Positions 5,601 to 21,600 are shown, numbered from the stretch's first letter. The stretch is 22,631 bases of DNA from Okeania sp. (GCF_035285525.1 NZ_JAYKGW010000207.1:1-22631), one strand, 5' to 3'. Made by a program: numbers and translations. The notes: generated by a model from the letters alone, not told the origin.

Positions 5601-6085
5601 GTATTCATTGGGGTAACATGATGGTGGGGATAGTGGGAGAGAAAGGTAGGATGTCTGGAGATGCAGTTTCTGATAATGTAAATTTGACGTCTCGTTTGGA
5701 AGGTTTAACTAAGTTTTATGGTGTTTCTTTATTAATTTCTGAGTCAGCTTTTAACTGTTTAAAAAATCCAGAAAAATATCAAATGAGGTTTTTAGATAGG
5801 GCATCGGTGAAGGGTAGAGATGAACCGATTAATGTTTATGAAGTGTTGGATGGTGAAGTAGATTTTATCCGAGAGTTAAAGTTAGAAACTCAAGGAGATT
5901 TTCAGCAGGGTTTAGACTATTATCGTTTAGGAGATTTAGTAGCAGCTAAAGTTTGTTTTGAGAAAGTATTGGTGGTTAATTGTGCAGATGAAACAGCTAA
6001 ACTTTATTTGGAAAGAATTGATGAGTTGATGGTCAATGGTATTCCCATAAATTGGAATGGAGTTTGGGCATTTACTCAGAAATAA
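2657..6085 (+). CDS. Hybrid sensor: Cache-like periplasmic domain, HAMP, HisKA/HATPase_c, REC, class III adenylate/guanylate cyclase, and a C-terminal TPR-like tail
   Basis: Two TM segments flank an extracytoplasmic domain of about 330 aa that carries the RPWYQKA Cache signature. HAMP: [15 protein letters not shown]...[12 protein letters not shown]-box: [15 protein letters not shown] boxes: [28 protein letters not shown]: ILVVDDEP...LLDVMMP...LTAK. Cyclase: [32 protein letters not shown]. Confidence 0.93.
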
Positions 6086-6087
6086 GG

Positions 6088-6140
6088 AAGAAGTTAAGAA
6101 ATAAGAAGTTAAGAAGTTAAGAAGTTAAGAAGGAAGAAGT
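6088..6140. repeat. Octamer array aagaagtt (about 6 units) starting 3 nt after the sensor stop codon
   Basis: aagaagtt aagaaata(a)gaagtt aagaagtt aagaagtt aagaagga agaagt. A further piece of the same array lies at 6273-6294. Confidence 0.8.
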
Positions 6141-6272
6141 AATATAAAATCCAGATAATTAATAAACTCAAGTCATTGCGACTGCAACGGAGTGGAAGGA
6201 AGCAATTTCATAATTTTAAGAGATTGCTTCCTATCGTCGCAATGACCACTACTGTGCAACCATATTTTATAT
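6141..6272. mobile_element. 132-bp MITE-like element with three nested inverted repeats, inserted in the aagaagtt array; may also act as a terminator hairpin
   Basis: Outer IR: aatataaaat (6141-6150) and atattttatat (6262-6272). Middle IR, perfect 11 bp: gtcattgcgac (6172-6182) and gtcgcaatgac (6236-6246). Inner IR, 10 bp: aggaagcaat (6197-6206) and attgcttcct (6223-6232). Both flanks read aagaagt. Confidence 0.55.
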
Positions 6273-6463
6273 AAGAAGTTAAGAACTAAGAAAGAAAAAA
6301 ATGCTCAAAATAAAAACTCTCTTGCTATTTCATTAATAGATAATTGATACATCTCAATATTTGCCAATATACTTTTTTTCTATTCTCTCCATACCTCCAT
6401 ACCTATTTCCTGAAAATGAATTTAATATGATAATGAAATAATTACTATATCCCAATTAAATAT

Positions 6464-7109
6464 ATGACGAATTTACAAATAAAACTTCCCACAGATACAT
6501 GGGTTTCAGCTACTGGGAATGAATATCTCCAAACTATTGAAAATCCCATTTACACTAGAGCAAAATCTTATTATTATCAAGGAAAACTCAGAATAGAAAT
6601 ATCACCAGTAAGTTACGATCGCGCCAAGGATAATTCACTTATTGCTATAGCTCTTGGTATTTTCTGTAGCCTCAAAAATATTAGAAGTAAAAGTTTAACT
6701 AATTGTAGTTATAGAAAAACCGGACTTCAATAAGTACAACCAGATATTTCCTACTATATAGGTGATCATTCTAATATTATTCCTTGGGGAACTTCTATTG
6801 TAGATTTAGATAGATATCCATCCCCAGATTTAGTCATAGAAATAGCCAATATTTCACTGGCAAATAATAAAGGTGAAAAAAAGGTTAATCTATGAAGATT
6901 TAAAAGTCAAAGAATATTGGATAGTTGATGTTAAAAATGTAGATATTATTGCTTTGGCTATGGTTGATGGTGGCAGTAAAAAAATTAAAGAATCTCAAGT
7001 TTTATCAGGATTATTAATAAGTATTTTAAAAGAAGCTTTAGAACAGAGTCGAAGTATTAATCAAAATGAAGTTATTGCCTCCCTATTTTCTCAATTTCAA
7101 GAATCTTGA
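6464..7109 (+). pseudogene. Uma2-family (DUF820, PD-(D/E)xK-like) endonuclease gene, disrupted
   Basis: Three collinear pieces reconstruct a typical Uma2 protein (…YYYQGKLRIEISP…, VQPDISYY…PDLVIEIANIS…, KKRLIYEDLKVKEYWIVD…). There is an in-frame TAA at 6731-6733 and a frameshift in the A7 run at 6876-6882. Confidence 0.75.
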
Positions 7110-7974
7110 TCTTGAGTAGGAACTGGAGAAAAGGAAGAGTCTGCTACTAGATTACTGTTGTTCAATAGTCTAGATAGATCGAGTGAGGACTATTCTACTT
7201 GTCCCAATGGTGATGCTTTGAAGTTACAAAGAATATTTAGCAAAAAAACAAAAGTCAGGTATTTGGAATGATATAGCAGTCGAAGCAAACGGCACGAATA
7301 TTTCTAAATTCTGTTTGCGGAGCATTTCCCTATACGAAAAACCCTTTGATAGTCTCCTGTTCCCTATTCCCTAGCGCGTAGCGCTATAAATGAGAGAAGT
7401 TTTTCCCTTGTTGTGACTGAATTTGTGAAGATTTGATGAAGATCAAACCCTATAATCCCTGGAAATCTACTACCAAGTAGTTATAAGCTGTACTGATAAG
7501 TCTAACGTATCTCCGTAGTTACACGGTTTTTACTTCTTAATATCAAATCTACTGTCAAATTCCACATATAAATAGTTTGAAATCCTGATTATATCTTGAT
7601 TGTTAATTGATAAATAGTCAGAGATATTGGCATAATTGCTTAACATAAATCAACATTTTTTGATGATTAAAATTATAGTGATAGATGATCTTGGTATTAA
7701 ATATAAAATTTTTAAAATATTTGTATAAACATAATTTTGTTATTTTGATACTTAGTATAATTGTGTAAAATATCAATTGTTTTATGTGAATTTTAGAAAT
7801 ATTTGAAAAACTAATATATTCACATATTTTAACTATATAAAGATTGAGTAAAACAGCTGATTTGCTATTGCTTTATTTTTTGGTGATGGATATTATTGAT
7901 TTTAAGTAAATCAAAGCTGTAATTCCAGACTATCTTACAACGGTAATGGTATGTCTTCGTTCGGCTATTACTGA

Positions 7975-8078
7975 CAGGACTTACGCAAAGCAACTAAGAA
8001 ACCGGGCTGATTGCAGTGAGATTGTGGTTCTAACCAATAAATTTGGTTGATAAACCCGGTTTCTGCATAAGCCCTAAC
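7975..8078. mobile_element. MITE-like dispersed repeat, about 100 bp (caggacttacgca … tgcataagccct termini)
   Basis: The termini are imperfect inverted repeats. The interior carries agaaaccgggct / aacccggtttct inverted copies. It shares the caggacttacgcaaag head with copies at 9878 and 13544. It lies about 70 bp upstream of the B2 gene. Confidence 0.5.
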
Positions 8079-8147
8079 CGATCTAAATTTGAGGCATTTT
8101 TCCTACTAGAAAATGTCTAAGTACCATTATTCAATCCCTAACATTCA

Positions 8148-8624
8148 TTGAAAGTAAAAAAGCTGCATAAGTTCTTACAACTTAACCTCTTGGAACAACT
8201 CCTGCTAGTTAAGGCATTTCTTTTGCTTGCGGTAATTCGGGTAGGACTGAAATTCTTGCCTTTTCAGACTTTGTACCGCCTTCTAGCAAAAGTATTTCAG
8301 CCAACTGCAAAGTTGCAGATATCAGAATCGACTTATGCAGAAAAAGTAGTGTGGACAGTAAGAGTAGCTAGCCGCTATGTACGGGGTGTCAGATGTCTAG
8401 CTCAGGCTTTGGCTACTCAGGTATTATTGGAACAGCGCGGTTATAGCTCTAACCTTCGTATTGGTTTCACTAGAAATAAGGGTGGGCGGATGTCAGCCCA
8501 TGCTTGGGTGGAAAGTGAGGGGAGGGTGGTGATTGGTGATCTTAAGAATATGGCTGACTATATTCGTGTGCCACTTCAGGGAACAGAAAATCTTAAAAAG
8601 AAGGAGTGGAGATTATTATCCTAG
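8148..8624 (+). CDS. Lasso-peptide-type B2 protein (transglutaminase-fold cysteine protease, Transglut_core3-like), stand-alone
   Basis: 158 aa with a hydrophobic N-terminal helix (LLLVKAFLLLAVIRVGLKFLPF). Putative Cys-His-Asp triad: RC83LAQALA (codon 8394-8396), SAH118AWVE (8499-8501) and VVIGD131. The spacing (35 and 13 aa) is close to that of McjB-type leader peptidases. The start is TTG; there is no in-frame ATG near the N-terminus. Confidence 0.78.
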   Translation: MKVKKLHKFLQLNLLEQLLLVKAFLLLAVIRVGLKFLPFQTLYRLLAKVFQPTAKLQISESTYAEKVVWTVRVASRYVRGVRCLAQALATQVLLEQRGYSSNLRIGFTRNKGGRMSAHAWVESEGRVVIGDLKNMADYIRVPLQGTENLKKKEWRLLS

Positions 8625-8653
8625 CCTTTAGAAGTGTCTACAACAATAAATAA

Positions 8654-8968
8654 TTGTTGTCTCTATCCACAATAGCCATTTTGATACTAAGTTATACTTC
8701 TGCTTATGCGACTCAAAATTTTACTCTTGAAGCATGGAAATTTGCTGGCCTTGGTCAAGGAGGAGTTGTTGAAGAAGAAGGGGATGATGAAGATCAGGTC
8801 TATATTTGTTTGAAAAATGGCAAACCCCTGAAAGTCTTAGGATTAGAAATGATTGACTCAGACGACATATCAGAAGAAGGTATAGTTTGTACTCCTGAGC
8901 CATCATCTATCTTCGGCTTGATAACATTAGGCTCTATTTTAGCTGGAGCTAAAATTTTACAAAAATAG
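8654..8968 (+). CDS. Small acidic secreted protein with a PEP-CTERM sorting signal
   Basis: The C-terminus TPEPSSIFGLITLGSILAGAKILQK shows PEP, a hydrophobic helix and a basic tail. The N-terminus LSLSTIAILILSYTSAYA is signal-peptide-like with an AxA site. The middle is acidic (EEEGDDEDQ). Only TTG starts are available (8654/8657) and there is no basic n-region, so the gene model is uncertain. Confidence 0.5.
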   Translation: MLSLSTIAILILSYTSAYATQNFTLEAWKFAGLGQGGVVEEEGDDEDQVYICLKNGKPLKVLGLEMIDSDDISEEGIVCTPEPSSIFGLITLGSILAGAKILQK

Positions 8969-9100
8969 GTTTTACCCATGAGCGCTATTGGTAGGGTGTG
9001 TTTGGCGTTCCGCAAAGCTCCGCTAACGGCTGTCGCTGATATGTAAAGCGGTAGCGTAACGCACCAAGACTCTATAGAGAGTGCCTTTATGTAAGTCCTG
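8967..9100 (-). mobile_element. Dispersed hairpin repeat, copy A (same family as 9878-9969 and 13544-13595, inverted orientation)
   Basis: ggtagggtgtgtt (8990-9002) and ccaagactctatagagagtgcctttatgtaagtcctg (9064-9100) match the reverse complement of copy B. A degenerate left terminus aggttttacccatga overlaps the preceding stop codon. Confidence 0.6.
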
Positions 9101-9124
9101 AAAAACAAAAAAATCAACTAATTT

Positions 9125-9129
9125 AAGGA
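9125..9129 (+). promoter_or_regulatory. Possible Shine-Dalgarno (aagga) for the precursor gene
   Basis: aagga lies 9 nt upstream of the ATG at 9139. Confidence 0.3.
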
Positions 9130-9138
9130 TATTTTACC

Positions 9139-9828
9139 ATGTCTAGTCATGAAATAATGAATCCAAATTTGCCTTTGTGGTCTTTTCAGTTTAAACCCAA
9201 TTCTCAGTTGGGTGTAAAAACTCGCAAGGATTTAGAAATTCATCTGATTACTCGTGCTTTGAAGGATGAGGATTTTAAGCGAGAGTTGATTGCAAATCCG
9301 AAGGCTGTGATTGAAGAAGAATTAGAGACAAAGTTACCTGAAGACCTTGAGATTAAGGTACTTGAGGAAACGGAAGATACTATTTATATGGTGTTGCCTT
9401 GTAATCCTTATGAGGGAATGTCTGAGGAAGAGTTACAGGCTTCTTTAGGGATGACTTATGAGGATGTAGCTCAGTGGGTTTTGGAACAGCAAAAAAACAC
9501 CTTATTGGATGAAGAAAGTAGTGTAATCCTTTTGCTTCATATTTGGAAGGATCAAGATTATAAACAAAAACTAATACTTGACTCAAAAACGGTACTTGAA
9601 CAAAAATTTAATACCAATATATCAAAAAATATTACAATTAAGAGTCTTGAAGAAACTCCTCAGAAGCTTTTTATAGTCATACCTGAAATGGGTGATAAAT
9701 CAGTACCTCGTATGACTGAATGGTTTGATGATATCAAGTCTGAGCGAAAGCAACAGCCCTTATTTGAAAAAATTTCAGTAGGATACTGTGGTTCTTCTTT
9801 TGAAATGGGTTCTAGCTGTACAACATAA
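9139..9828 (+). CDS. lanA: RiPP precursor: two tandem NHLP (nitrile-hydratase-like leader peptide) domains plus a C-terminal Cys/Ser/Thr-rich core (class II lanthipeptide LanA candidate)
   Basis: NHLP repeat 1 (aa 28-90): TRKDLEIHLITRALKDEDFKRELIANPKAVIEEELETKLPEDLEIKVLEETEDTIYMVLPCNP. Repeat 2 (aa 124-185): …HIWKDQDYKQKLILDSKTVLEQKF…NITIKSLEETPQKLFIVIPE. The C-terminus is …KISVGYCGSSFEMGSSCTT. The gene lies directly upstream of lanM on the same strand. Confidence 0.85.
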   Translation: MSSHEIMNPNLPLWSFQFKPNSQLGVKTRKDLEIHLITRALKDEDFKRELIANPKAVIEEELETKLPEDLEIKVLEETEDTIYMVLPCNPYEGMSEEELQASLGMTYEDVAQWVLEQQKNTLLDEESSVILLLHIWKDQDYKQKLILDSKTVLEQKFNTNISKNITIKSLEETPQKLFIVIPEMGDKSVPRMTEWFDDIKSERKQQPLFEKISVGYCGSSFEMGSSCTT

Positions 9829-9877
9829 GTTATAAAAAGTAACTGATCTTGAGTTTTTAGAAAGTTTAATAACATCA

Positions 9878-9969
9878 CAGGACTTACACGGGAGGCACTA
9901 TGTATAGAGTATTGGTCCCTTACGAGATACACTAACACACCCTACCAGTCGCGTTCATGCGTAAGTCCT
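9878..9969 (+). mobile_element. Dispersed hairpin repeat, copy B, between the precursor gene and lanM
   Basis: Termini are aggacttac (9879-9887) and gtaagtcct (9961-9969). The interior ggcactatgtatagagtattgg…aacacaccctacc is homologous to copy A (reverse complement) and copy C. Confidence 0.65.
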
Positions 9970-10021
9970 AATCAGTAACTCTGCATATCTAGATCAAGAA
10001 ATAGAGGACAGAACATACAGA

Positions 10022-13000
10022 ATGTTATTGAAAAAGTCTGTTTCTCTTATTTCTTTTATTGTATTATATTTCAAACAATTTAAGCTGATGTATGATCCTA
10101 AAACTATTCACAATAGTCTTATTGAAATAATAGAAAAATCAAGTACAATTACTGAACGTTTGAGTGATAAATTTATAACCGATGCTTCTGAAGAAAATTC
10201 TCAAATAATCTGTTCTAAAACTTATCAGTGGTGTGAAGTAGCAACTCAAGGAAACTGGGCAAACTTTAAGGTACATCTTGCTAATTATGGTCTTGATGAA
10301 AAAACAGCTTACCGTGCTTTCTGTTCTGTACATCTAGATAATAGTAATTACCTACCAGAATGGGCAATAATTCTAGATGAGTATCTTAAAATCATTAACT
10401 TATTGAAATTAAATACTTTAGGAACAGAAGATACTAAAAGTAATAGTTTTTTATACGATCAAGAACCTATTCCGTTTCAGGAAGTTTTGTTGCCATTAAT
10501 TGGGATAGCAAAGCAAAAATTAATATCTCGTCTTGAATGTAGATATGATTTACTGAATAATCAAGCCCATGTCAGCTTAGAGCGTAATCTTTTAAAACGT
10601 TTATCTGAGCTATGTTTGCCGTCGATGCAACTGGAGTTTTCAGTTTTTCGAGCTTGTCAACAATCTTCTGTTGTGACTCGTGTACTTAATGAGTCTACAA
10701 AACATTCTTGCTATCAAAATTTTATTCACAAGTTACTTAAAGGTCATTTATTAGTTTTATTACAAGAAAAACCTGTATTAGCTCGATTAATGGCGATTGC
10801 AACTCATTTGTGGATTGAGTCCACTATAGAGTTGATTACACGCTTAGATTCAGACTGGCATGAAATTAACAGAAAATTTCATCCCAATTTTGATATCAAG
10901 CAAGTTGTTGCTATACAATGTGGTTTGTCTGATTACCATTACAATGGACGTTCTGTGATTGCATTACATTTTGCATCAGGACTTAAACTGATCTACAAAC
11001 CTAAGAGTATCAGCTTAGAGGAAAAATATTTTAAGTTACTAGCATGGTTCAATGAGCAAAGATTTTACAGGAATTTTAAATTACTAAAAATATTAAATCG
11101 ATCAACTTATGGTTGGGTAGAATTAATAGAGAATTTACCATGTAAAAATCCGGAAGAAGCAAAACGTTATTATGAGCGTTCTGGTTCTTTACTGTGTTTA
11201 ACTTATGTTTTAAATATAACAGATTTACATAAAGAAAATATTATTGCCTGTGGCGAACATCCAGTTCTAATTGATTTAGAAACCCTTATGCATCCTTGGC
11301 CAAAAAAACTTGACAATATAGAAAATGAGAAAAATTCTGAATATATTGCTAAACGTCAAATGGGTTATTCTGTAATTCGCACTGGATTGTTACCTAGGTG
11401 GCAGTTAGGCTTGGAAAATCAAAAGTTTGACATAAGTGGATGGGGTAGCTTTGGTGAACAAAAAACATCGATTTCAACAGCTGTCGTTAATAATATTAAT
11501 ACGGATGCAATGGAAATTATATATGAAAATGAAATAAATACTGAAAGCCATAATAATCCGTTGTTAAACTATATATCTTTAAACATTAGTGAATTTGTTG
11601 AGGATATTATTAACGGATTTAGCGAAATGTATGTTTTTTTAATAAAAAACAAGCTAAGAATTTTGAGAGAAGAAGGTCTCTTAAAATGGTTTAAATCTGA
11701 AAGGACTCGATACATTTTTCGTTCGACAAAAATATATCAACTAATTTTAAAGACATTACTTGATCCAAAGCATCTGGAAAATGGTGCTACCTGGAGTATG
11801 CAATTAGATATTATTGCTAGAGTGATGTTTTTGCCTGGGAACTCACCGACACTACATCCTTTGGTAAAAGAAGAAAGAAAGGCGTTGGAGAAATTAGACA
11901 TTCCTCTATTCTTTACTAATTCAGGAACAAAAACTTTATTTTTCTCAGACAATAAAGTTTTTGATAATTTTTTTTCTCAAAGTGGGGAAAATTTAGTTAT
12001 TGAGTATTTGAATAGTTTAAATAATGATGATTTGGAGAAACAAGTTGATTTAATTAAAGGTTCATTGTACTCAAGAATAACCGAAAATGCTCATGCAACA
12101 ATACAGTATTTTGGCAATCATAACATCTCATTCAAAAGTTCTACTAATATCCTAAGTCATAATATTTGTTTAAGTAAAAATTTTTCTATTGCTGAAGATA
12201 TTGAAAAGAGAGCCATTTACTCCATAGATAAAAGTAATGTAACCTGGATATCGCCTCAATATAGTTTTGATATTGAAAGTTTTCAAATTGCTCCTTTAAG
12301 TTTGGGAATGTATGATGGAATTTCTGGTTTAACAGTTTTTTTGTCAGCTTTTAAAAAAAATATTGGAGAAACAAAATTTGATTATCTTGTAAGAATAAAT
12401 ATAGAGAATTTACATAGAAAAATTAAACAATTAACATCTACAAAAATTTCAGAAACAATTAATAGTGATGTTTGGTTAAGATATATTTCAACTCTCTATT
12501 CAATAGTTACTGTTAACAATTTGCTAGATATATCACTTTTCCTAGATGATGCTTACAAGATCGTTGTGGACATTCCGCCTAATATAATATTGGCTGACCG
12601 AAAATTTGATATTTTATCAGGTTCATCACACACAATTTTGGTATTATTAGCTTTATATAGTCAATCTGTCGATCAAGAAGTTTTACATAAAGCCATACTT
12701 TCTGGTAACCATCTCCTTAATAACCGTGTCGTCAGTGAATCAGGTCATCGAACCTGGGCAACCTTAGATGGAAAACTTCTCACAGGTTTCTCTCATGGTG
12801 CAGCCGGAATAGCCTACGCTCTACTTCGCCTCTATAAAGCCACTGGTGAAACCCGCTTTAAAGAAGCAGCAGAAGAGGCGATCGCCTACGAACGCAGTGT
12901 CTTTATTCCCGAACTGAACAACTGGCCAGACTTTAGACAACCCCAAACCAAAGATAATCCTAAATGTATGTGTTCATGGTGTCATGGTGCCCCTGGGATT

Positions 13001-13366
13001 GGTTTAGCTAGAGTTGCTACCTTAGACATTCTCGATACCCCAGAAATTCGCCAAGACATAGAAGCAGCCATCACCACTACCCTAAACTATGGACTCTCAG
13101 ATATCGATCATCTATGCTGTGGCAACATGGGACGAGTAGAATTTCTCTTCACTGCCGGGCGTAAACTAAACCGACCCGAATTAGTAGATGCAGCTATGAA
13201 ACTTGCTTCACAAGTGGTTGCCCGTGCTGAATACAAAGGACATTATGGCTATGGTCCGATTCTTGATTTTCACCCCGGTTTCTTCCAAGGTGCGGCAGGA
13301 ATAGGCTACCAATTACTTAGATTGGCTTACCCAGACCAACTACCGTCAGTGCTGCTATGGGAATAA
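10022..13366 (+). CDS. lanM: Class II lanthipeptide synthetase LanM, ProcM-like CCG subgroup
   Basis: Dehydratase (DUF4135) motifs: GRSVIALHFASGLKLIYKPKS, DLHKENIIACGEHPVLIDLE, SVIRTGLLPRW, ERTRYIFRSTKIY, LDIPLFF. LanC-like cyclase motifs: SHGAAGIAYAL, SWCHGAPGIG, and LCCGNMGR (CCG at 13115-13123 in place of CHG). An alternative start is M23 at 10088. Confidence 0.95.
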   Translation: MLLKKSVSLISFIVLYFKQFKLMYDPKTIHNSLIEIIEKSSTITERLSDKFITDASEENSQIICSKTYQWCEVATQGNWANFKVHLANYGLDEKTAYRAFCSVHLDNSNYLPEWAIILDEYLKIINLLKLNTLGTEDTKSNSFLYDQEPIPFQEVLLPLIGIAKQKLISRLECRYDLLNNQAHVSLERNLLKRLSELCLPSMQLEFSVFRACQQSSVVTRVLNESTKHSCYQNFIHKLLKGHLLVLLQEKPVLARLMAIATHLWIESTIELITRLDSDWHEINRKFHPNFDIKQVVAIQCGLSDYHYNGRSVIALHFASGLKLIYKPKSISLEEKYFKLLAWFNEQRFYRNFKLLKILNRSTYGWVELIENLPCKNPEEAKRYYERSGSLLCLTYVLNITDLHKENIIACGEHPVLIDLETLMHPWPKKLDNIENEKNSEYIAKRQMGYSVIRTGLLPRWQLGLENQKFDISGWGSFGEQKTSISTAVVNNINTDAMEIIYENEINTESHNNPLLNYISLNISEFVEDIINGFSEMYVFLIKNKLRILREEGLLKWFKSERTRYIFRSTKIYQLILKTLLDPKHLENGATWSMQLDIIARVMFLPGNSPTLHPLVKEERKALEKLDIPLFFTNSGTKTLFFSDNKVFDNFFSQSGENLVIEYLNSLNNDDLEKQVDLIKGSLYSRITENAHATIQYFGNHNISFKSSTNILSHNICLSKNFSIAEDIEKRAIYSIDKSNVTWISPQYSFDIESFQIAPLSLGMYDGISGLTVFLSAFKKNIGETKFDYLVRINIENLHRKIKQLTSTKISETINSDVWLRYISTLYSIVTVNNLLDISLFLDDAYKIVVDIPPNIILADRKFDILSGSSHTILVLLALYSQSVDQEVLHKAILSGNHLLNNRVVSESGHRTWATLDGKLLTGFSHGAAGIAYALLRLYKATGETRFKEAAEEAIAYERSVFIPELNNWPDFRQPQTKDNPKCMCSWCHGAPGIGLARVATLDILDTPEIRQDIEAAITTTLNYGLSDIDHLCCGNMGRVEFLFTAGRKLNRPELVDAAMKLASQVVARAEYKGHYGYGPILDFHPGFFQGAAGIGYQLLRLAYPDQLPSVLLWE

Positions 13367-13411
13367 CTAGAGGTTACTGAAGTGAGAGGATTGGGGAGAG
13401 TGGGGAGTATC

Positions 13412-13453
13412 ACTTCTGACTTCTGACTTCTAACTTCTAACTTCTAACTTCTC
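13412..13453. repeat. Heptamer STRR-like array acttctg/acttcta/acttctc, six units
   Basis: Read directly. It begins 46 nt after the lanM stop and is flanked by ggggagagtggggag and gggaggtgtggggagag. The reverse complement agaagtt is the core of the octamer array at 6088. Confidence 0.8.
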
Positions 13454-13543
13454 AGGGAGGTGTGGGGAGAGATAAAAGTAGGAAAAATAATTACTAAACA
13501 ACTAATAATGATCGCGCAACAGACTTTGAATATTGATAACTAT

Positions 13544-13595
13544 CAGGACTTACGCAAAGGCACTAACTATATATAGCGTCTTGATGCGATGTTCG
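13544..13595 (+). mobile_element. Dispersed hairpin repeat, copy C (partial) downstream of lanM
   Basis: caggacttacgcaaaggcactaactatatatagcgtcttgatgcg aligns with the reverse complement of copy A (caggacttacataaaggcactctctatagagtcttggtgcg) and with the head of copy B. Confidence 0.55.
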
Positions 13596-13746
13596 ATTGA
13601 ATACTTATCAATAACTCCTGACTCCTTTACCAAAAAATCCTCACTTTTGCAAAGATACGCTTAGGACTTCTATATAGCTTCTTATTTGAAATACAAGCCC
13701 AGCATTATAGGTAAAACGATGTTGCTGAATTAAGAGATGAATATAA

Positions 13747-13827
13747 GTGAGATGGGGAGGATACCCGTCCGAAAATATAAGGGACGGGCAAGATGCCCAT
13801 TCCACAAAACTATTAAAATCATCTCAC
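13747..13827. repeat. 81-bp hairpin repeat just upstream of the nucleotidyltransferase gene
   Basis: 8-bp terminal IR: gtgagatg (13747-13754) and catctcac (13820-13827). Internal stem: cccgtcc (13764-13770) and ggacggg (13782-13788). It includes gggcaagatgccc, a motif I recall as common in Nostoc intergenic repeats. Confidence 0.5.
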
Positions 13828-13831
13828 ATTT

Positions 13832-15058
13832 ATGCAATGCTGCATTAATTATAGGTACAACAGTATGATGACTATTCCCGTTACTCAATCCCAACTATTG
13901 ACTAAAGAATCAGCCCGAATCACTCGCCCTGAAATCCAGCTACTGCTGTGTTGCACCAGAACTCAGATAGACCCGACGACAGAAAATCGTATTAAGGGGT
14001 TATTACAACAAGATATCGACTGGACTTACCTCATCCAGACCTCTATCTGTCACAGTGTCATGCCTCTCCTGTACCGAAGTTTAAATTCTACCTGTCCAGA
14101 GGCAGTTTCAAAATCTATCTTGTCTCAGCTTCGGAATTTTTATCATACTAATGCACAGCGTAACCTATTTCTGACGAGTGAGCTAGTCAATTTGTTAAAT
14201 CTTTTCCAAGACAACGGCATTCCCGCTATCCCTTTTAAGGGACTATCCCTCGCAGTTTCAGCTTACGGCAACTTAGTATTAAGGCAGTTTAGCGACCTCG
14301 ATATCCTAGTTCATAAACAAGATATAAATAGAGCCAAACAACTTCTGACCTCTCATAAATATCAACTGACCAAAGAACTATTTTGGGAAAGTCACTTTAT
14401 TAGTGAAGGAGGCAGAGTTAATATAGACCTTCACCAAGCAATTACACCAAAATACTTCTCCTTTCCTGTTGATTTCAATGAGTTGTGGAAACGTCTTCAA
14501 CCAGTTTCCTTGGTTAATAGAACTATATTTACTTTTTCCTCGGAAGATTCACTTTTAATCCTCTGCGTATATATAGCCAAAGACTGTTGGGACAAGCGGG
14601 AACGGCTAATTCAAGTTTGTGATATTGCCGAACTGCTTCGTCATCAAAAAATAGATTGGGAACTACTAATAGAACAAGCGACTAAACTAGGTATTACACG
14701 AATAGTATTACTGGGTCTTTTGCTAGCAAATCAACTTTTGGGAACAGCACTTCCAGAAGAAATTTTATCCAAAATACAAGCAGAACCAACGGTTAAATTA
14801 CTCGCTACTCAGGTATGCGAGTGGCTTTTCCATAAAACTGATTCTCCAAATGTAGGTTTTGAAAGAAAGCTTTTCTACTTGAAAGTTAGAGAACGTCTAG
14901 AGGATATCATCCCTCTATTAGATTATTGGATAACCCCAAGTCAAACAGACCGAGATTTTTTTTTATTGCCTAATTCACTCTCTTTTCTTTACTATTTAGT
15001 TCGGCAAATTCGATTAGTTGGAAAATACGGATTGAGAATAAGGTGTTGGCAAAAATAG
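13832..15058 (+). CDS. Nucleotidyltransferase family protein (NTP_transf_5 / PF14907-like)
   Basis: Signature region: IPFKGLSLAVSAYGNLVLRQFSDLDILVHKQDINRAKQLL (KG…Y…R…DLDILV). The protein is about 400 aa and all-alpha toward the C-terminus. The more likely start is MMTIPV at 13865. Confidence 0.72.
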   Translation: MQCCINYRYNSMMTIPVTQSQLLTKESARITRPEIQLLLCCTRTQIDPTTENRIKGLLQQDIDWTYLIQTSICHSVMPLLYRSLNSTCPEAVSKSILSQLRNFYHTNAQRNLFLTSELVNLLNLFQDNGIPAIPFKGLSLAVSAYGNLVLRQFSDLDILVHKQDINRAKQLLTSHKYQLTKELFWESHFISEGGRVNIDLHQAITPKYFSFPVDFNELWKRLQPVSLVNRTIFTFSSEDSLLILCVYIAKDCWDKRERLIQVCDIAELLRHQKIDWELLIEQATKLGITRIVLLGLLLANQLLGTALPEEILSKIQAEPTVKLLATQVCEWLFHKTDSPNVGFERKLFYLKVRERLEDIIPLLDYWITPSQTDRDFFLLPNSLSFLYYLVRQIRLVGKYGLRIRCWQK

Positions 15059-15181
15059 GAATATTTTCTAAGTAACAAATAATCATCATAATCTCCAATC
15101 ATCAGCCCGTAAAAACCTAACAAAAACAGCTCTACCACAAGCTTCGTTCGTAGACCTAATACTCTTACCATCTACTGCTAA

Positions 15182-15491
15182 CTATTCGGCCTCTTGAATT
15201 AAGATTTGCTGTTTAGCCCATTGATTGAATACTTGAGCCAACTCAGCAAAATCAATTCTCGTCATAATTCGCCGAAATGTAGAATTCCGTTGGAAAACTT
15301 AAAGGTGATAGCTCTAGTTCTTGATTTAAGGCCTGGTGATGACGACGAGCAAAATTTTCTAATGCACAATAAGAGAAACAACCGCTCATTGTACCCATAA
15401 TCACTAATAGTAAGACTAACCATAATGGATAACGTCTTCCTCTAGCAGCTCGAAAATCAGGTAACTGGGCTAATATTTGTAACAAGTTCAT
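15182..15491 (-). pseudogene. ISAs1-family transposase, N-terminal fragment only (DDE_Tnp_1_assoc region), frameshifted and truncated
   Basis: MNLLQILAQLPDFRAARGRRYPLWLVLLLVIMGTMSGCFSYCALENFARRHHQAL matches the ISAs1/H-repeat N-terminal domain. After a frameshift near 15285 the alternative frame reads STFRRIMTRIDFAELAQVFNQWAKQQ and stops at 15182-15184. No DDE catalytic domain follows. Confidence 0.8.
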
Positions 15492-15684
15492 TTTTATCTA
15501 AAGCTCTAAATACTAAATATAGAATAGTTAGCTTCACTAAATACTTGACATTAATCATTGTACTCCTCAATATTTTTCTCTGGCGACAATAAATTAGCCT
15601 TGCTCCCAGGAGGGGAAGAAGATCAAGTTTTTTTTCACTGATTATCCGGAATCATATTACAGCCAAGATGTCTGTGTTACCAAA

Positions 15685-18600
15685 TTACATTGGTAAAATA
15701 ATCGCAAGTGTTGTACCTTCTCCAACTACAGATTCACAAATAATCTCACCACTGTGTTTCTCAACAATAATTTGGTAGGCGATCGCCATTCCTAAACCTG
15801 TTCCTTTACCCACTCCTTTAGTGGTAAACCCTTGTTCAAAAATTCGGTCTCTAGTCTCTGGTTTCATTCCCTGACCATTGTCTTCAATTTCAATCTGTAT
15901 TTGATTTTCATCTAGTTGAGAAGTGCGAATTTTAATTTGATTTGGTTTCTCCTGAATCTCAGCATAAGTTTTACCAAGATTAGCGTCATCAAAAGCATCA
16001 ATCGCATTTGCCAAAATATTCATAAATACCTGATTTAACTGACCAGGAAAACAGTTAATTTCTGGCACTTCCTCATACTGTTTCATAATTTCTATTGACG
16101 GACGTTTATCGTCAGCTTTAGTGCGATGCTTCAGGAGTAATAATGTACTCTCAATCCCATCATGGATATTGAATGCTACTTTATGTTCCTGGTCTTTGCG
16201 GGAAAATATTCTCAAACTGCTGCTGATATTTCTCATTTGCTCGACTCCCACATTCATCGACTTGAGAACGTTAGGGAAGTCTGCTCGTAAATATTCCAAA
16301 TCTATCTCTTTAGCATGATTCGCCAGAACTTCCGTAGAACTATTCTGCTCATACAGAGCCAAATGCTCTAATAAATCAGATAAGTTTTCTTGAGCTATTT
16401 GCACATTGCCAGCAATAAACCCCAAAGGATTATTGATTTCATGGGCAATACCAGACATTAAATTACCTAATGCTGACATTTTTTCACTTTGCACCATTTG
16501 CAATTGGGTTTTTTGTAACTCTTGAAGAGTTTTTTCTAAAGCTTCAGATTTTTCTCGGAGGGCAGTTTCTGTAGCTTTGAGCTGACTAATATCCCGCATG
16601 GTAGTCGAAAAATATTCTGGCACTCCCTCAGCAGATTTGTGAGCAATAATAACTTGAGAAACTAGGATTTCTCGTCCTGTTGAATCTATAACTGCTGTTT
16701 CTCCAAACCAAGTTCCATCACGAGTAGCGATAGGAATGCCTTCATTGAAAATGATTTCATTTGCCCACTGGGGATGGTTTTCTGTGAGTTTAAATGAGTT
16801 CCCCTCAGAATGTAGTTCTGGTCGTAGTTTTTTAAATTGAGCATTCATCCATAATACCCTGCATTGAGTATCGACAATACCAACATAGTCAGAAGTCATT
16901 TCTAAAATAGCAATGAGACGTTTTTGTTCTTGCTCTAGTTGTATGCGCTCGGTAATATCCTCGTAGCTGCCTAACATTCCGTATACTGCTCCATTTTCAT
17001 CACACAATGGAATTTTGTTTGTGTCTAGCCACCTGATTGTACCATCACTCTGTCTTTGGGTTTCAATAATGTGTAATTCAGGTTGGTTAGATTCCATCAC
17101 CCGGCGATCGCATTCTCGAAAGAAGTCAGCCTCTTCTTTAGTACAAGGGATGTCGTAATCATTTTTACCAATCAGAGCTTCGGGAGAACTAAAATTTACC
17201 ATTTTAGCAAGTTTTTGGTTGCATCCTAAAAAAGTCGAGTTTCTATCTTTCCAGAAAACGTATTGGGGAATGGTATCAATAATTTGTCTGAGTAAGTTTT
17301 CTGATTTTTTGACTTGTTGTAGTGATAATTCCGATTTCTGATGCAGTTGCGCATTTTTAATAGAGATGGCAGCTTGATTAGAAATAAAGTTGAGCATGAG
17401 AATACGCTCTGGGGTAAATACATCACGAGTCAGTTGATTTTGTAAATAGAGAATGCCTATCAATTTTCCCTGATTTAACATTGGTAAACACAAAATACTT
17501 TGGGGTTGATTTTGCTGTAGATAGTTATCAATAATTGGTAAGTCGGTGTCAATATTATTAATAACTAATACTTCTCTAGTATTTTTAACATATTGAATGA
17601 GTTGAACTGGTAAGTTAGTATTATCTGTGAGGAGTTTGGTACAGAGTTGGGTGCTATCTGTAGTCGCAACAGCTCTGAGATGCCAAACATGATTTTCATC
17701 CCTGATGAAAATGAGGCAGCGATCGCCCCCAGAATTTTCCAGAATAATCTGACTTAGTTGATAGAGAAGTTCGTTGAGTTGGATGACTTCAGAAATAGCT
17801 TGAGAAGATTTCAAGACGGTGGCTAAATCAAGGGTAGTATTGATAATTGTTTGAGACTGATGATTCAGGAGCTTAGACGAGTGACTTGAAAGTTTAGGTA
17901 CAGCAATATTTGTCAGAGTATCCCATAATTTAGGAGATTGGGTTCCTGCTTGGAAAATAGGTTGTAGTAATTGGGGATATCGTTTTTCTAAGTCGTCAGT
18001 TTTCGCTTTTGCCCCCCAACGAGCGTAGCAATAGTAAGCCTCTTGCATATAGCTTGCTGCAACTTTTTCTTTACCCCAGTTTAGGTAAAATTTGGCTGTT
18101 AGTTCATTAGCAAGTGCTTCTTCTTGAAGATATTCGTTTTCTTTGGCTCCAACAATGGCGCGATCGTATAGTTCAATAGCTTCTGATTTTTGATTAAGAA
18201 CTCGATATCGTTCAGCTTCTACTAAGTTAAATTTATGCAAATAATTCATGGGAGCATGATTTTTCCATATCTTCATCTTTTCCTGATTAGTTTGAACTCT
18301 ATCAAGAATTGTTTCTTGTTCCGACACAGAAACTTCTGGATAAATTGCTAGTCGTACTAAAGAATCATAAAAATAGAACAGAGAAACCACAACCAATCCA
18401 GTTACTCCTCCTAGAGACTCTTCTGCAATTTTGGCATTATTTAATGCTTGAGAGTAATCATTGAATAAATAACTAAGTAAAAGTTTATTAATAAATAGAT
18501 GATTAATAGTATATAAATCTTGAGCTTGTTGATGGAGAGGTAGCATTTTCTCCTCGTTGTATGCTACCCCAATTAAACTATGCAAATGTTCAGACTTTCC

Positions 18601-21600
18601 TTGTAAATTTAAAGTAGTTTGTTGGTAAATACAACACCAATTTAAAGCCACTTGCTGCTTAACTCTCCTTAAGGAATCAATATAAACTGTCTGGTCTTTT
18701 TCCAAAATATCTAAGTTTTTTCCTAACCAAAAAGAATGAGTCAAATAAATGTAAGCACAATAACCAACATATTCAAAATCTCCAGTTTCCAGTCCAGCAG
18801 AATAACCCTCAAGAGCAGGTGATAAAGTTTCTCTAATATGAGCTTGCCAATGAGCTACATGGGCATTAACAACAGTCAATATCTTGGCTTTCAGTTCTTG
18901 AGCGTTAAATTTTGATAAAACTTTTAAGGCTAATTTTCCAAATTCGGAACCAGTATCAATATCACCAAAAGAACCAGAAAGAAGTAAGCCATAAATACTG
19001 TAACCGTAAGCAGATATTGATGTATTACCCTCTCTCAAGGATAATTTTACCATTTCAAAAGCGATCAATGGAACCATAACTTGATAGCTCTGAAAAGCAG
19101 CAGGAAGAGTTTGCATTAAAATTTTCATAGCTGCAACGTTTTCGGGAACGCTCATTATTGGCAAGTCAATCAAATCAGGAATAGATTTCCCCTTCAAATT
19201 CTCAACTACTTGGTCAAAACCTTTCTGAATATCAGAAGGTTGTGGTTGCTCTGGAAAGTTAACGCCTAATTCTTGTAGAATTAAACCTGCGATTTTAATT
19301 GCTTCTAGCTGTTGACTTTGGACAATGCAAGCAGTTATTTTAATTTCATAAACGGGTACTTTGTCGAGTAAAGTTTGGGTATTTTGGAGAATAATTTCTG
19401 TAAATTCCTGCATCTGCTCAAAATTTCCATTTAAGTAAGCAACTTCAGTAACTAAATTATATAATTCCAGAGTTAATTTATATTCACTGTTCCAACTATC
19501 TTCACTGAGTAACTCCAACCCAATTAATAAATATTCAATGGCTGCACTGTAAGCAGTTGCCACTTTGGCTTTTTTCCCAGCTATGAAATTTAATTGAGCT
19601 AGTTGACATTCCTCTCTGATATCATCAATTAATGATCTACCAATATTTAAGTGATTGATAAAATCAAAAATATATTCTGCTTGTTCCTCTTTGGGAATAT
19701 TACTTAACAACCCTCGACCTATTTGTAAATGAGTTCTTTGTTTTCGGTCTTCAGGAATCAAAGAATAAGCTGCTTGTTGCACTCTATCGTGCAAAAAACG
19801 ATAACTCACTGCCACTGTCTGAGTTTGGCTTTCATACCCACTACCCTGAAAAAACTTATAATTTTCAGAAATAGGTACAATCAACCCCTCTTGTAACGCT
19901 CCCCAAATATCTGCTGCCACCTCTGCTTCTGGTTTGTCACACACCACCGCTAACGTTTTTAAATTAAACTGATTTCCAATACAAGCTGCTAACTTTAATA
20001 CTTCCTGTGTTCCTACTACCAATTTTTGCAACCGCCCCGCCACAAACTCCACCACATCATCTGTAATCACTGCATCACGCACCTCCAACAAATTACATTC
20101 CCAATATCCTAACTTCAAATTAAACTTAATCAGTTCATCTTCATGCAACCCTTGCAAAAACTGCGTAGTAAAAAATGGGTTGCCTTTGGTTTTTTGATAC
20201 ACTAACTCTGTCAAAGGTTGAGCTAATTTTTGACTACATTTCAAAGTATCTGCTATTAATTGATTGATATGATTAATTGCTAACGGTGGCAAAGTAATTG
20301 TAGAAACAACTGCCTGCTCTTCTTTTAATTCTGCTAAAGTTAACATCAATGGATGAGCTGGATACACTTCATTATCTCGATATGCTCCCAACAGTAATAA
20401 ATATCTAGTTTCTCCACCACTCATTAATACTTTCATCAAATTTAACGATGCTGAATCTGCCCATTGTAAGTCATCTAAAAATATAACTAATGGATGTTCA
20501 ACACTCGTAAATACACCGATAAATTTTTGAAATAGTAAGTTAAAACGATTTTGAGCAGCATTGCCAGAAAGTTCGGGAACAGGTGGTTGACTACCGATAA
20601 TATTTTCTAGTTCTGGTACTACCTCAATGATAACTTGAGCGTTATCTCCCAAAGCGTTGAGAATTTCAGTTTTCCAAGTGGTTAATTCTGTATCTGACTC
20701 ACTCAGTAATTGTTTCATCAAATCTCGGAAAGCTTGCACAAACGCAGAGAACGGAATATTGCGATTAAACTGGTCAAACTTACCTTTGATAAAATATCCA
20801 TTTTGCCGAACTATAGGTTTATGAACTTCATTAATTACAGCAGTTTTGCCAATCCCAGAAAATCCTGCCACTAGAAGAAGACGGGGAGTGTGGGAGAGGT
20901 GGGAGGATGTTTTGACTCGAAGAAACCGGGTTTCTGTTTCTGGGTTCTCTTTTGGTAACTCCCCCCTTTCAAAGGGGGGTTGGGGGGGATTACTAACTCT
21001 ATCAAAAGCATCCAATAAAGCTTGAACTTCAGGTTCCCGTCCATAGAGTTTTTCAGGAATCATAAAGCGATCGCTCCTATCCCTGTCCCCCAAATCAAAT
21101 GATATAATTTCTCCTGTAGTTTCTAACTGTTGCCGACATTTCTCTAAATCGTGCTTCAAACCCAAAGCACTCTGATAACGGTCTTCCGCATTTTTCGCCA
21201 TTAATTTCAGTACAATGTCGATGAGGATTTGAGGTATTTCTACACTCCCCTCCTGGGAGGGGTTAGGGGTGGGTTGACTCTGTAGGGACGTTGGAAACAA
21301 AAATGCGAACGTCCCTACTTCCTGTTCCCTAGTCCCTACTTCCTGTTCCCTAGTCCCTACTTGCGGTTCCCTAGTCCCTACTTGCGGTTCCCTAGTCTCT
21401 ACTTCCTGCTCCCTATTTCCTAATACAGTTGGTGTTTTAGCAATATGACAATGAACTAACTCCATCGGATCGCTGCTTTCAAAAGGCAACTTTCCAGTCA
21501 GGAGTTCAAAAAATGTGACACCAAGAGAATAAAAGTCACTGCGATAGTCAATACCTCGATTCATCCGTCCGGTTTGCTCTGGAGAAATGTAAGCTAGAGT

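Follow-up and report, generated by a model that had tools for sequence, protein, structure and literature searches.

A conserved family of cyanobacterial lanthipeptide clusters that appears to be built on lasso-peptide accessory genes, with a partly eroded copy in Okeania sp.

The contig of Okeania sp. analyzed here (22,631 nt in its entirety, hereafter the window) carries between positions 8148 and 15058 five open reading frames (ORFs) on one strand, coding for a lasso-type B2 protease, a small PEP-CTERM protein, a LanA precursor with two NHLP leader domains, a LanM lanthipeptide synthetase with a CCG zinc site and an NTP_transf_5 nucleotidyltransferase (NTase). We consider this region to be, probably, a partly eroded member of a conserved cyanobacterial family of class II lanthipeptide clusters that would use the accessory genes of paeninodin-type lasso peptides in the pathway proposed below. 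As far as we could find in the literature, such a family of lanthipeptide clusters on a lasso accessory chassis is undescribed: no description of B2 together with LanM appeared in the full-text literature searched, a scope that omits many subscription-journal papers. A preprint on nostolanthin turned out to be unrelated.

The family was delineated by comparing the window with other genomes. A scan with the precursor alignment through one genome per species (185,579 species) gave nine loci, all cyanobacterial, and three further ones were reached through precursor homologues (Microcystis CS-1036, a metagenome contig and Dolichospermum DET73). Including the window, the set comprises 13 loci from the Oscillatoriales, Nostocales and Chroococcales. 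Homologues of the B2 protein at 56-62% identity (in Microcoleus, a Microcystaceae metagenome-assembled genome (MAG), a Phormidiaceae MAG, Nostoc sp. 106C and Nostochopsis) are all located directly 5' of a long NHLP precursor gene and lanM. The relationship holds in both directions, as every B2 homologue of at least 56% identity with a readable context is found directly upstream of a tandem-NHLP lanA and lanM, and every locus found by the precursor query has B2 directly upstream. B2, lanA and lanM are contiguous in 13/13 loci. The NTP_transf_5 gene is present in 12 (it is absent in Nostochopsis), an ATP-binding cassette (ABC) exporter devoid of the C39 domain in 10 (absent in the window, Floridaenema and Nostochopsis), the PEP-CTERM ORF in two and a discrete PqqD (the B1 protein of lasso pathways) in just one, that of Microcoleus.

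With a PqqD hidden Markov model (HMM), the six-frame translations of the window and of 11 of the 12 relatives yielded no hidden B1, and gene tables and homology maps show the hybrid loci to have no lasso cyclase, either within 10 kb or inside the cluster. Neither a C39 exporter, whose constant presence beside the lan pair elsewhere would have told against a hybrid pathway, nor a second ABC/PCAT gene was found within 10 kb in any of the 12 relatives. The neighbouring genes are different ones in each genome, with transposases often among them, which suggests that the cluster moves as an island. On this evidence the combination of B2, lanA, lanM and NTase is not accidental, and the idea advanced in the sequence-only reading, that B2 and NTP_transf_5 belong to the lanthipeptide pathway, gains support from their presence in all 13 and in 12 loci respectively, their enzymatic roles being predicted.

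The origin of the accessory genes can be glimpsed from the next-closest B2 proteins (38-43% identity), which sit in canonical cyanobacterial lasso clusters. The lasso cluster of locus L011 has the order PqqD, B2, Asn-synthetase cyclase, 57-aa ORF, HPr-kinase-like gene, ABC and NTP_transf_5, that is, the gene order of the hybrid cluster, and its 57-aa ORF matches lasso leader models. That of L026 is rearranged (ABC, Hexapep, NTP_transf_5, PqqD, B2, cyclase, 53-aa ORF). The PqqD, B2, ABC and NTase proteins of both share 33-43% identity with their homologues in the hybrid clusters (for the ABC, E-values reach as low as 1e-138), and it was only at this level, in true lasso clusters, that B2 and NTase were found conserved without lanA and lanM. 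The lasso leader models had no match in the window, where the sole precursor is the 229-aa NHLP protein. Because of the shared synteny and the identity levels, the simplest reading is that the family derives from a B1-B2-C-A-K-D-N lasso cluster in which the cyclase (C), precursor (A) and kinase (K) would have been replaced by lanA-lanM, B1 being later mostly lost. A different arrangement was seen in a contig from a farmland-soil metagenome (L013:2935-6540), with PqqD, B2, a 114-aa ORF (weak lasso-leader match), an HPr-kinase-like gene and NTP_transf_5. There is no cyclase on this 10.4-kb contig, and it may represent a linear phosphorylated-peptide pathway using B2.

The features of the cluster and its surroundings in the window are the following (MITE, miniature inverted-repeat transposable element):

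7975..8076, no strand, MITE-like repeat upstream of B2, with inverted termini AGGACTTACGCA ... TGCATAAGCCCT
8148..8624, plus strand, lasso-type B2, 158 aa, TTG start (NF033537, PF13471)
8654..8968, plus strand, small secreted-type ORF with a marginal PEP-CTERM anchor (TIGR02595)
8966..9101, no strand, MITE-like repeat separating the PEP-CTERM ORF from lanA, in inverse orientation to the one at 9878-9971
9139..9828, plus strand, LanA precursor, 229 aa (TIGR03793)
9878..9971, no strand, MITE-like repeat between lanA and lanM
10022..13366, plus strand, LanM, class II lanthipeptide synthetase, 1114 aa, ProcM-like CCG zinc site
13412..13566, no strand, filler of the deletion site: ACTTCTA heptamer array (13412-13452) and solitary MITE terminus (13536-13566)
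13655..13714, plus strand, ABC exporter relic, last 19 codons and stop (by comparison with the C-terminus in relatives)
13832..15058, plus strand, NTP_transf_5 nucleotidyltransferase (PF14907), likely true start ATG at 13865
15252..15491, minus strand, N-terminal fragment of an ISAs1-family transposase (DDE_Tnp_1_assoc), at the downstream edge of the island

All five ORFs were confirmed at these coordinates (the NTase probably starting at 13865 and not at 13832), and profile searches bore out every domain that had been named from the sequence: B2, PEP-CTERM, double NHLP, CCG LanM and NTP_transf_5. Likewise, HMM and domain searches of the whole window found no C39 exporter, no PqqD and no Asn-synthetase-like cyclase, as had been noted. 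LanM scored 884 bits against TIGR03897 (cut-off 304), 393 bits against PF13575 (DUF4135) and 200 bits against PF05147 (LANC_like), and its sequence matches in the PDB are LicM2/CylM. It carries CMCSWCHGAPG together with the CCG zinc-site motif, and the same search found these in seven of the eight relatives whose LanM was read (L015 was unmatched and L021 unread).

The last ~215 residues of LanM (nt ~12700-13366) form an island of high GC content that is highly conserved across the family, with the GC fraction rising from ~0.29 to ~0.47 at the lanM boundary. This region (LanM aa ~900-1114) and a second one covering NHLP domain 1 of lanA (9163-9524) have 68-87% nucleotide identity in 12/12 relatives, and outside these two islands the cluster is barely alignable as DNA. 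The window LanM is collinear only with that of Floridaenema, which is also the closest (59% identity). Its last 600 nt are closest to L022 and L024 (84-87% at the nucleotide and 92-95% at the amino acid level), and for B2 and the lanA leader the nearest counterparts are those of L022, L023 and L024. These patterns suggest that cluster variants have recombined at the conserved islands.

A very different history had also been contemplated for the window, in which a mobile lanA-lanM cassette entered a resident B2/PEP-CTERM/NTase module, the repeats being the scars and the two gene sets functionally unrelated. The repeat copies around lanA and lanM are certainly real, since the AGGACTTACGCA terminus has 8 matches within two mismatches in the window against 1.07 expected by chance. 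They are MITE-like and flank lanA on both sides, with a fragment 3' of lanM, a point in favour of the cassette, and more distant B2/NTase homologues do occur without lanM. However, there are copies upstream of B2 and between lanA and lanM too, so that the lan pair is not bracketed as a unit. Furthermore, the gene order is kept in the 12 other loci. A search allowing one mismatch gave no terminus in eight of these, while three have copies (by the same measure) that do not frame lanA-lanM. The adjacency of lanA-lanM to all B2 homologues of at least 56% identity with context read, and the presence of the PEP-CTERM ORF in only 2/13 loci, also speak against such a resident module. We have rejected the insertion, which now seems highly improbable; given that the relatives mostly lack the repeat and that its copies do not frame the lan pair, the repeats appear to be later colonists of intergenic DNA and not insertion scars.

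LanA matches the NHLP leader model TIGR03793 in two stretches (110 bits) and is organized as a disordered N-terminal part with the motif LPLWS(F/Y)Q, NHLP domain 1 (aa 28-101, nt 9220-9441), NHLP-like domain 2 (aa ~125-180, nt 9511-9678), a linker, the junction ISVG and, after it, the predicted core YCGSSFEMGSSCTT (aa 216-229, nt 9784-9825). That the NHLP units are in tandem is indicated by the cross-match between domain 1 of the window protein and a relative's domain 2, and the AlphaFold model has two helix-helix-helix-strand-strand repeats (residues 29-85 and 125-180) between disordered ends (the first 27 and last 27 residues). Against TIGR03795, the model of fused tandem NHLP proteins, LanA reaches 37 bits, under the cut-off of 41. 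The LPLWS(Y/F)Q motif, at 9166-9198 (aa 10-20) and 5' of NHLP domain 1, is nearly invariant in 68 precursors and predicted disordered (pLDDT, the predicted local distance difference test score, below 50). B2 or LanM may dock on it as a linear motif.

The proteins that match the window precursor form at least 172 clusters at 90% identity, with E-values < 1e-63 among the 120 best-scoring matches listed. Across this family the leader is conserved and the core hypervariable: column conservation is 80-96% in NHLP domain 1, ~50-65% in domain 2 and 13-30% at the C-terminus. Composition changes along the same axis, with Cys going from 0.7% in the leader to 11.9% in the tail, Ser plus Thr from 10.7% to 24.7% and Glu from 13.3% to 1.6%. 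By these measures the family appears to behave as precursors of RiPPs, peptides made by the ribosome and modified after translation, do. In most members the junction has the form hydrophobic-hydrophobic-(G/A)-(S/G/A), most commonly 'IGS', of which the 'ISVGY' of the window (ISVG|YCGSSFEMGSSCTT) is a variant, and some precursors keep an upstream 'SxxELEAVAG(G/T)' or 'ELEAVAG'. The earlier remark that the precursor has no GG motif is correct in that no literal GG is found at the leader/core junction; nevertheless, the site is related to the classical double-glycine one.

Some precursors depart from the common pattern. The C-terminal tail has no Cys in 5 of 103 scored precursors (the metagenomic P0094, P0131, P0144, P0145 and P0169), nor in the second precursor of Nostochopsis (L009:11310-12035); products of such members could bear dehydro-residues but no thioether rings. 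The precursor of Microcystis aeruginosa CS-1036 (L023:10001-11098) is 365 aa long, and its Cys-containing core '...THIYTGGCCITNP' is followed by 'SDRNLK' and a Peptidase_S74, a self-cleaving intramolecular chaperone domain, which suggests that the C-terminal end of this core is released by autoproteolysis. In the same locus, lanM is separated from the ABC gene by a 207-aa ORF and a gene for Methyltransf_24.

The B2 protein of the window scored 105 bits against NF033537 (lasso_biosyn_B2, cut-off 33) and 77.5 bits against PF13471. It belongs to the transglutaminase-like cysteine protease type (MEROPS C96), with Cys83 and His118 invariant in 64 homologues. A profile search of the PDB gave no solved relative, and a Foldseek search with its AF2 model (mean pLDDT 79) gave weak matches to transglutaminase-fold proteins (best E = 0.05), which agree with a transglutaminase fold but say nothing on the active site. 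PqqD and B2 are fused in two metagenomic proteins. Mantel tests on the pairwise identities of the 13 loci gave a rho of 0.81 (p = 0.0002) for B2 against the LanA leader and of 0.66 (p = 0.0002) for B2 against the first ~880 residues of LanM, so B2, the LanA leader and most of LanM appear to have co-diverged, which fits a functional unit. B2 is also the only accessory gene kept in the minimal cluster of Nostochopsis (B2, three precursors and LanM). It is this strict adjacency, together with the co-divergence, that points to B2 as the leader peptidase.

The resemblance of the junction to a double-glycine site means that a C39 exporter elsewhere in the genome could cut the leader. The cluster would then be real, with a distant C39 peptidase-ABC exporter removing the leader and B2 otherwise employed, for example in trimming between the NHLP domains, in degrading the leader, in immunity, or as a non-proteolytic scaffold or transglutaminase. 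Along these lines, 'SxxELEAVAG(G/T)' persists in some precursors, 12/13 loci lack B1, and prochlorosin-type LanM systems are known to rely on distantly encoded exporters (PMC3140520, PMC7268733). On the other hand, B2 is the most tightly linked gene, directly 5' of lanA in 13/13 loci and retained even in Nostochopsis, it co-diverges with the LanA leader, its catalytic Cys and His are invariant, and no C39 domain is located within 10 kb of any locus. Taking both sides together, cleavage by a distant C39 enzyme seems to us unlikely, if well worth keeping in mind.

The relatives have an ABC exporter gene of ~1.8 kb between lanM and the NTase gene, where the spacer of the window is only 465 bp long. 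The exporters of the family (573-617 aa as called) align to TIGR03796, the NHLP exporter model, only from profile position 154 onward, meaning that they have no C39 peptidase domain. Within the window spacer, in frame 13340, the sequence '...LLYSFLFEIQAQHYR' corresponds to the exporter C-terminus '...YAHLFETQAQHYR' of the relatives, stop included. A tblastn search of the window for ABC remnants gave nothing beyond this 19-codon relic, and the remaining spacer consists of the heptamer array and the lone repeat terminus. A relic of this kind, with its stop matching those of the relatives, indicates that the exporter was deleted secondarily and not originally absent. The lanM-NTase spacer of Floridaenema aerugineum (L021:14262-14468), with the same ABC-less layout, contains a similar ABC C-terminus-like relic, 'GLLFDTQA*'. 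Either an ancient deletion is common to the two, or other reasons, e.g., expression signals of the NTase, have preserved the 3' end of the exporter gene.

Erosion may also have reached the PEP-CTERM ORF. It matches TIGR02595 marginally (18 bits, cut-off 16; the orthologue in L002 reaches 20.9 bits) and has a hydrophobic N-terminus with AYA/TQ at its end. The L022/L002 orthologue is matched from 8618 onward, across an in-frame TAA (8651-8653), which interrupts the stretch that in the orthologue codes for the beginning of the signal peptide and cuts off the conserved n-region. Conservation of the ORF is confined to the Microcystaceae MAG (53% identity, E = 2e-34) and one metagenomic contig of 534 nt, so the ORF is a sub-lineage accessory, possibly decaying, and not a component of the family.

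These observations raise the question of whether the Okeania cluster is a decaying remnant without an exported product. The exporter is reduced to 19 codons, a stop codon lies in the N-terminal region of the PEP-CTERM ORF, MITE-like repeats or their fragments occupy several spacers and a transposase fragment adjoins the cluster. Yet B2 (158 aa), LanA, LanM (1114 aa) and NTase are all intact ORFs with conserved catalytic motifs, Floridaenema is ABC-less too and has intact genes and a similar relic, and a transporter encoded elsewhere could take over export. We regard the remnant explanation as improbable, though not to be taken lightly.

As to the nucleotidyltransferase, it scored 222 bits against PF14907 and preserves the KG...DLD motif (K136, G137, D155 and D157 invariant); a sequence search of the PDB found no solved relative. 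Its counterpart in the pseudomycoidin cluster is gene N, whose product adds a hexose to the phospho-Ser made by kinase K (PMC8498205). No Hpr_kinase_C gene (K) was found in the hybrid loci whose Pfam gene tables were read, and one is present in L011 and L013; the acceptor of the NTase in the hybrid clusters would therefore have to differ from that in pseudomycoidin. We have also considered the NTase as a substitute for the adenylating lasso cyclase and rejected it, as N and C coexist in canonical lasso clusters. At one locus (L024:15970-16077 and 17459-18661) there is a duplicate of the first ~36 NTase codons, with 83% identity to the window. The duplicate opens a 295-aa ORF 3' of the ABC gene, and two extra ORFs are apparently inserted in the 5' end of the NTase gene.

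The pathway that we propose would start with a LanA whose protein-like leader of ~190-215 residues comprises the two NHLP domains and precedes a short core that is hypervariable and has many Cys, Ser and Thr residues. The ProcM-like LanM, judging from its family membership, would dehydrate Ser/Thr and form the thioether rings. B2 would then cut the leader at hydrophobic-hydrophobic-(G/A)-(S/G/A), replacing the C39 domain and mostly acting without a B1 partner, the RiPP recognition element (RRE). Homology to the lasso D gene suggests that the C39-less ABC of the 'D' type would export the product, a gene deleted in the window. The weakest step is the last one, in which NTP_transf_5 would modify the peptide further, the analogy being gene N of pseudomycoidin.

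Several points weigh against a lasso-assisted lanthipeptide pathway of this kind. The roles of B2 as leader peptidase and of NTase as tailoring enzyme are predicted from sequence comparison. The co-divergence of B2 with the core could stem from physical linkage alone, and the Asp expected ~12 residues past the His, as third residue of the triad, shows no conservation; neither does it in the B2 proteins of the true lasso clusters compared, so this residue does not separate the hybrid from the lasso group. Lasso B2 proteases normally need B1, which is missing in 12/13 loci, and lasso leaders have an invariant Thr at -2 (PMC10885120), which is not apparent as a conserved residue in the hybrid precursors. 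The junction, as said above, looks like a degenerate double-glycine site. Regarding the NTase, its divergence does not track that of the core genes (Mantel, 13 loci, rho -0.10 to 0.15 against each other gene, p 0.22-0.69), Nostochopsis does without it and, in the single heterologous experiment on a related non-lasso pathway, removal of the NTase was without visible effect (PMC13381572). The tie of the NTase to the core is weaker than that of B2. Lastly, the window copy has lost its exporter and may be non-functional.

A bolder extension of the proposal is that B2 is a B1-independent peptidase reading the folded tandem-NHLP leader (through LPLWS(Y/F)Q or the second NHLP domain) and that the orphaned NTase uses phospho-Ser/Thr left by LanM to give a glycosyl- or nucleotidyl-phospho-lanthipeptide. 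We put this forward as speculation with little chance of being right in full; if it were, the product would bear a modification not known in lanthipeptides.

Outside the cluster, the contig encodes NdhF, a Cache/His-kinase/adenylate-cyclase protein and a large Ser/Thr-kinase/His-kinase protein. Scans of 6000-16000 for promoters (47 against 38 ± 6 in shuffled sequence) and terminators (7 against 4.5 ± 2) were near chance and have not been used as evidence. Two adjoining short ORFs upstream of the cluster (6464-6733 and 6873-7109) are probably one split pseudogene. Repetitive stretches include an intergenic tandem repeat at 2353-2459 (38-nt unit × 2.8, with AAACCGGGTTTC palindromes), an array of the 8-nt AAGAAGTT at 6084-6140, 3' of the sensor-kinase gene, and a 21-nt unit × 5.3 within the Ser/Thr-kinase gene (21311-21422) that encodes REQEVGT/REPQVGT heptads.

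Should B2 be tied to LanA and LanM, it would be the first case of the C96/B2 class serving a non-lasso RiPP class; a 2023 review of RiPP leader proteases handles these enzymes in the lasso context only, and in the literature they pass for lasso-specific and reliant on an RRE partner (PMC10885120). In most members B2 would act without B1 and on a leader of ~190 residues. The exchange of lasso C/A/K for lanA/lanM would be a natural experiment in RiPP module exchange, and the family offers a testable setting for the poorly understood NTP_transf_5 enzymes. In the laboratory, leaders of NHLP-type lanthipeptides are now removed by C39 domains of the LahT150 type, and B2 would provide a compact enzyme for the same purpose. 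The precursor family itself, given its size and its hypervariable cores, is a sizeable unexplored set of peptides.

Among known systems, the ProcM/prochlorosin and Nostoc NHLP/Nif11 clusters (Haft 2010, PMC2887384; Wang 2011, PMC3140520) resemble the hybrid clusters in their CCG LanM, their cyanobacterial hosts, and a conserved NHLP-family leader followed by a hypervariable Cys/Ser/Thr core. In those clusters, however, the leader ends in GG/GA and there is a C39 peptidase-ABC exporter, usually with HlyD, whereas the hybrid loci have neither C39 nor HlyD, their leader is a tandem NHLP of ~190 aa and a lasso B2 always precedes lanA. The fusion of two NHLP-like units in one polypeptide, as in the window LanA, is found in the Burkholderia-type precursors (TIGR03795; PMC2887384), but these are tied to thiazole/oxazole-modified microcin (TOMM)/cyclodehydratase machinery and not to LanM or B2. 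For the re-use of lasso genes the nearest precedent in concept is found in the linear polyphosphorylated peptides (LPP) of Bacillota (PMC13381572), in which the paeninodin-type RRE, kinase and NTP transferase, together with an exporter resembling MsbA, work outside a lasso pathway, although with a signal-peptidase-I-like leader peptidase instead of B2, with the kinase kept, without LanM and in a different phylum. The lasso clusters of paeninodin and pseudomycoidin (A, B1, B2, C, D, K, N; PMC8498205) share with the hybrid clusters B2, the D-type ABC, gene N and, in Microcoleus, B1, at 33-43% identity; where they have an Asn-synthetase-like cyclase, a short precursor and the HPr-kinase-like K, the hybrid clusters have LanA and LanM, and B1 is usually lost. 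Judged by its sequence, the cluster has the attributes of a class II lanthipeptide cluster save the GG site and the C39 exporter. It is not a lasso cluster, having no cyclase and no lasso precursor, yet it holds bona fide homologues of lasso B2, D and N.

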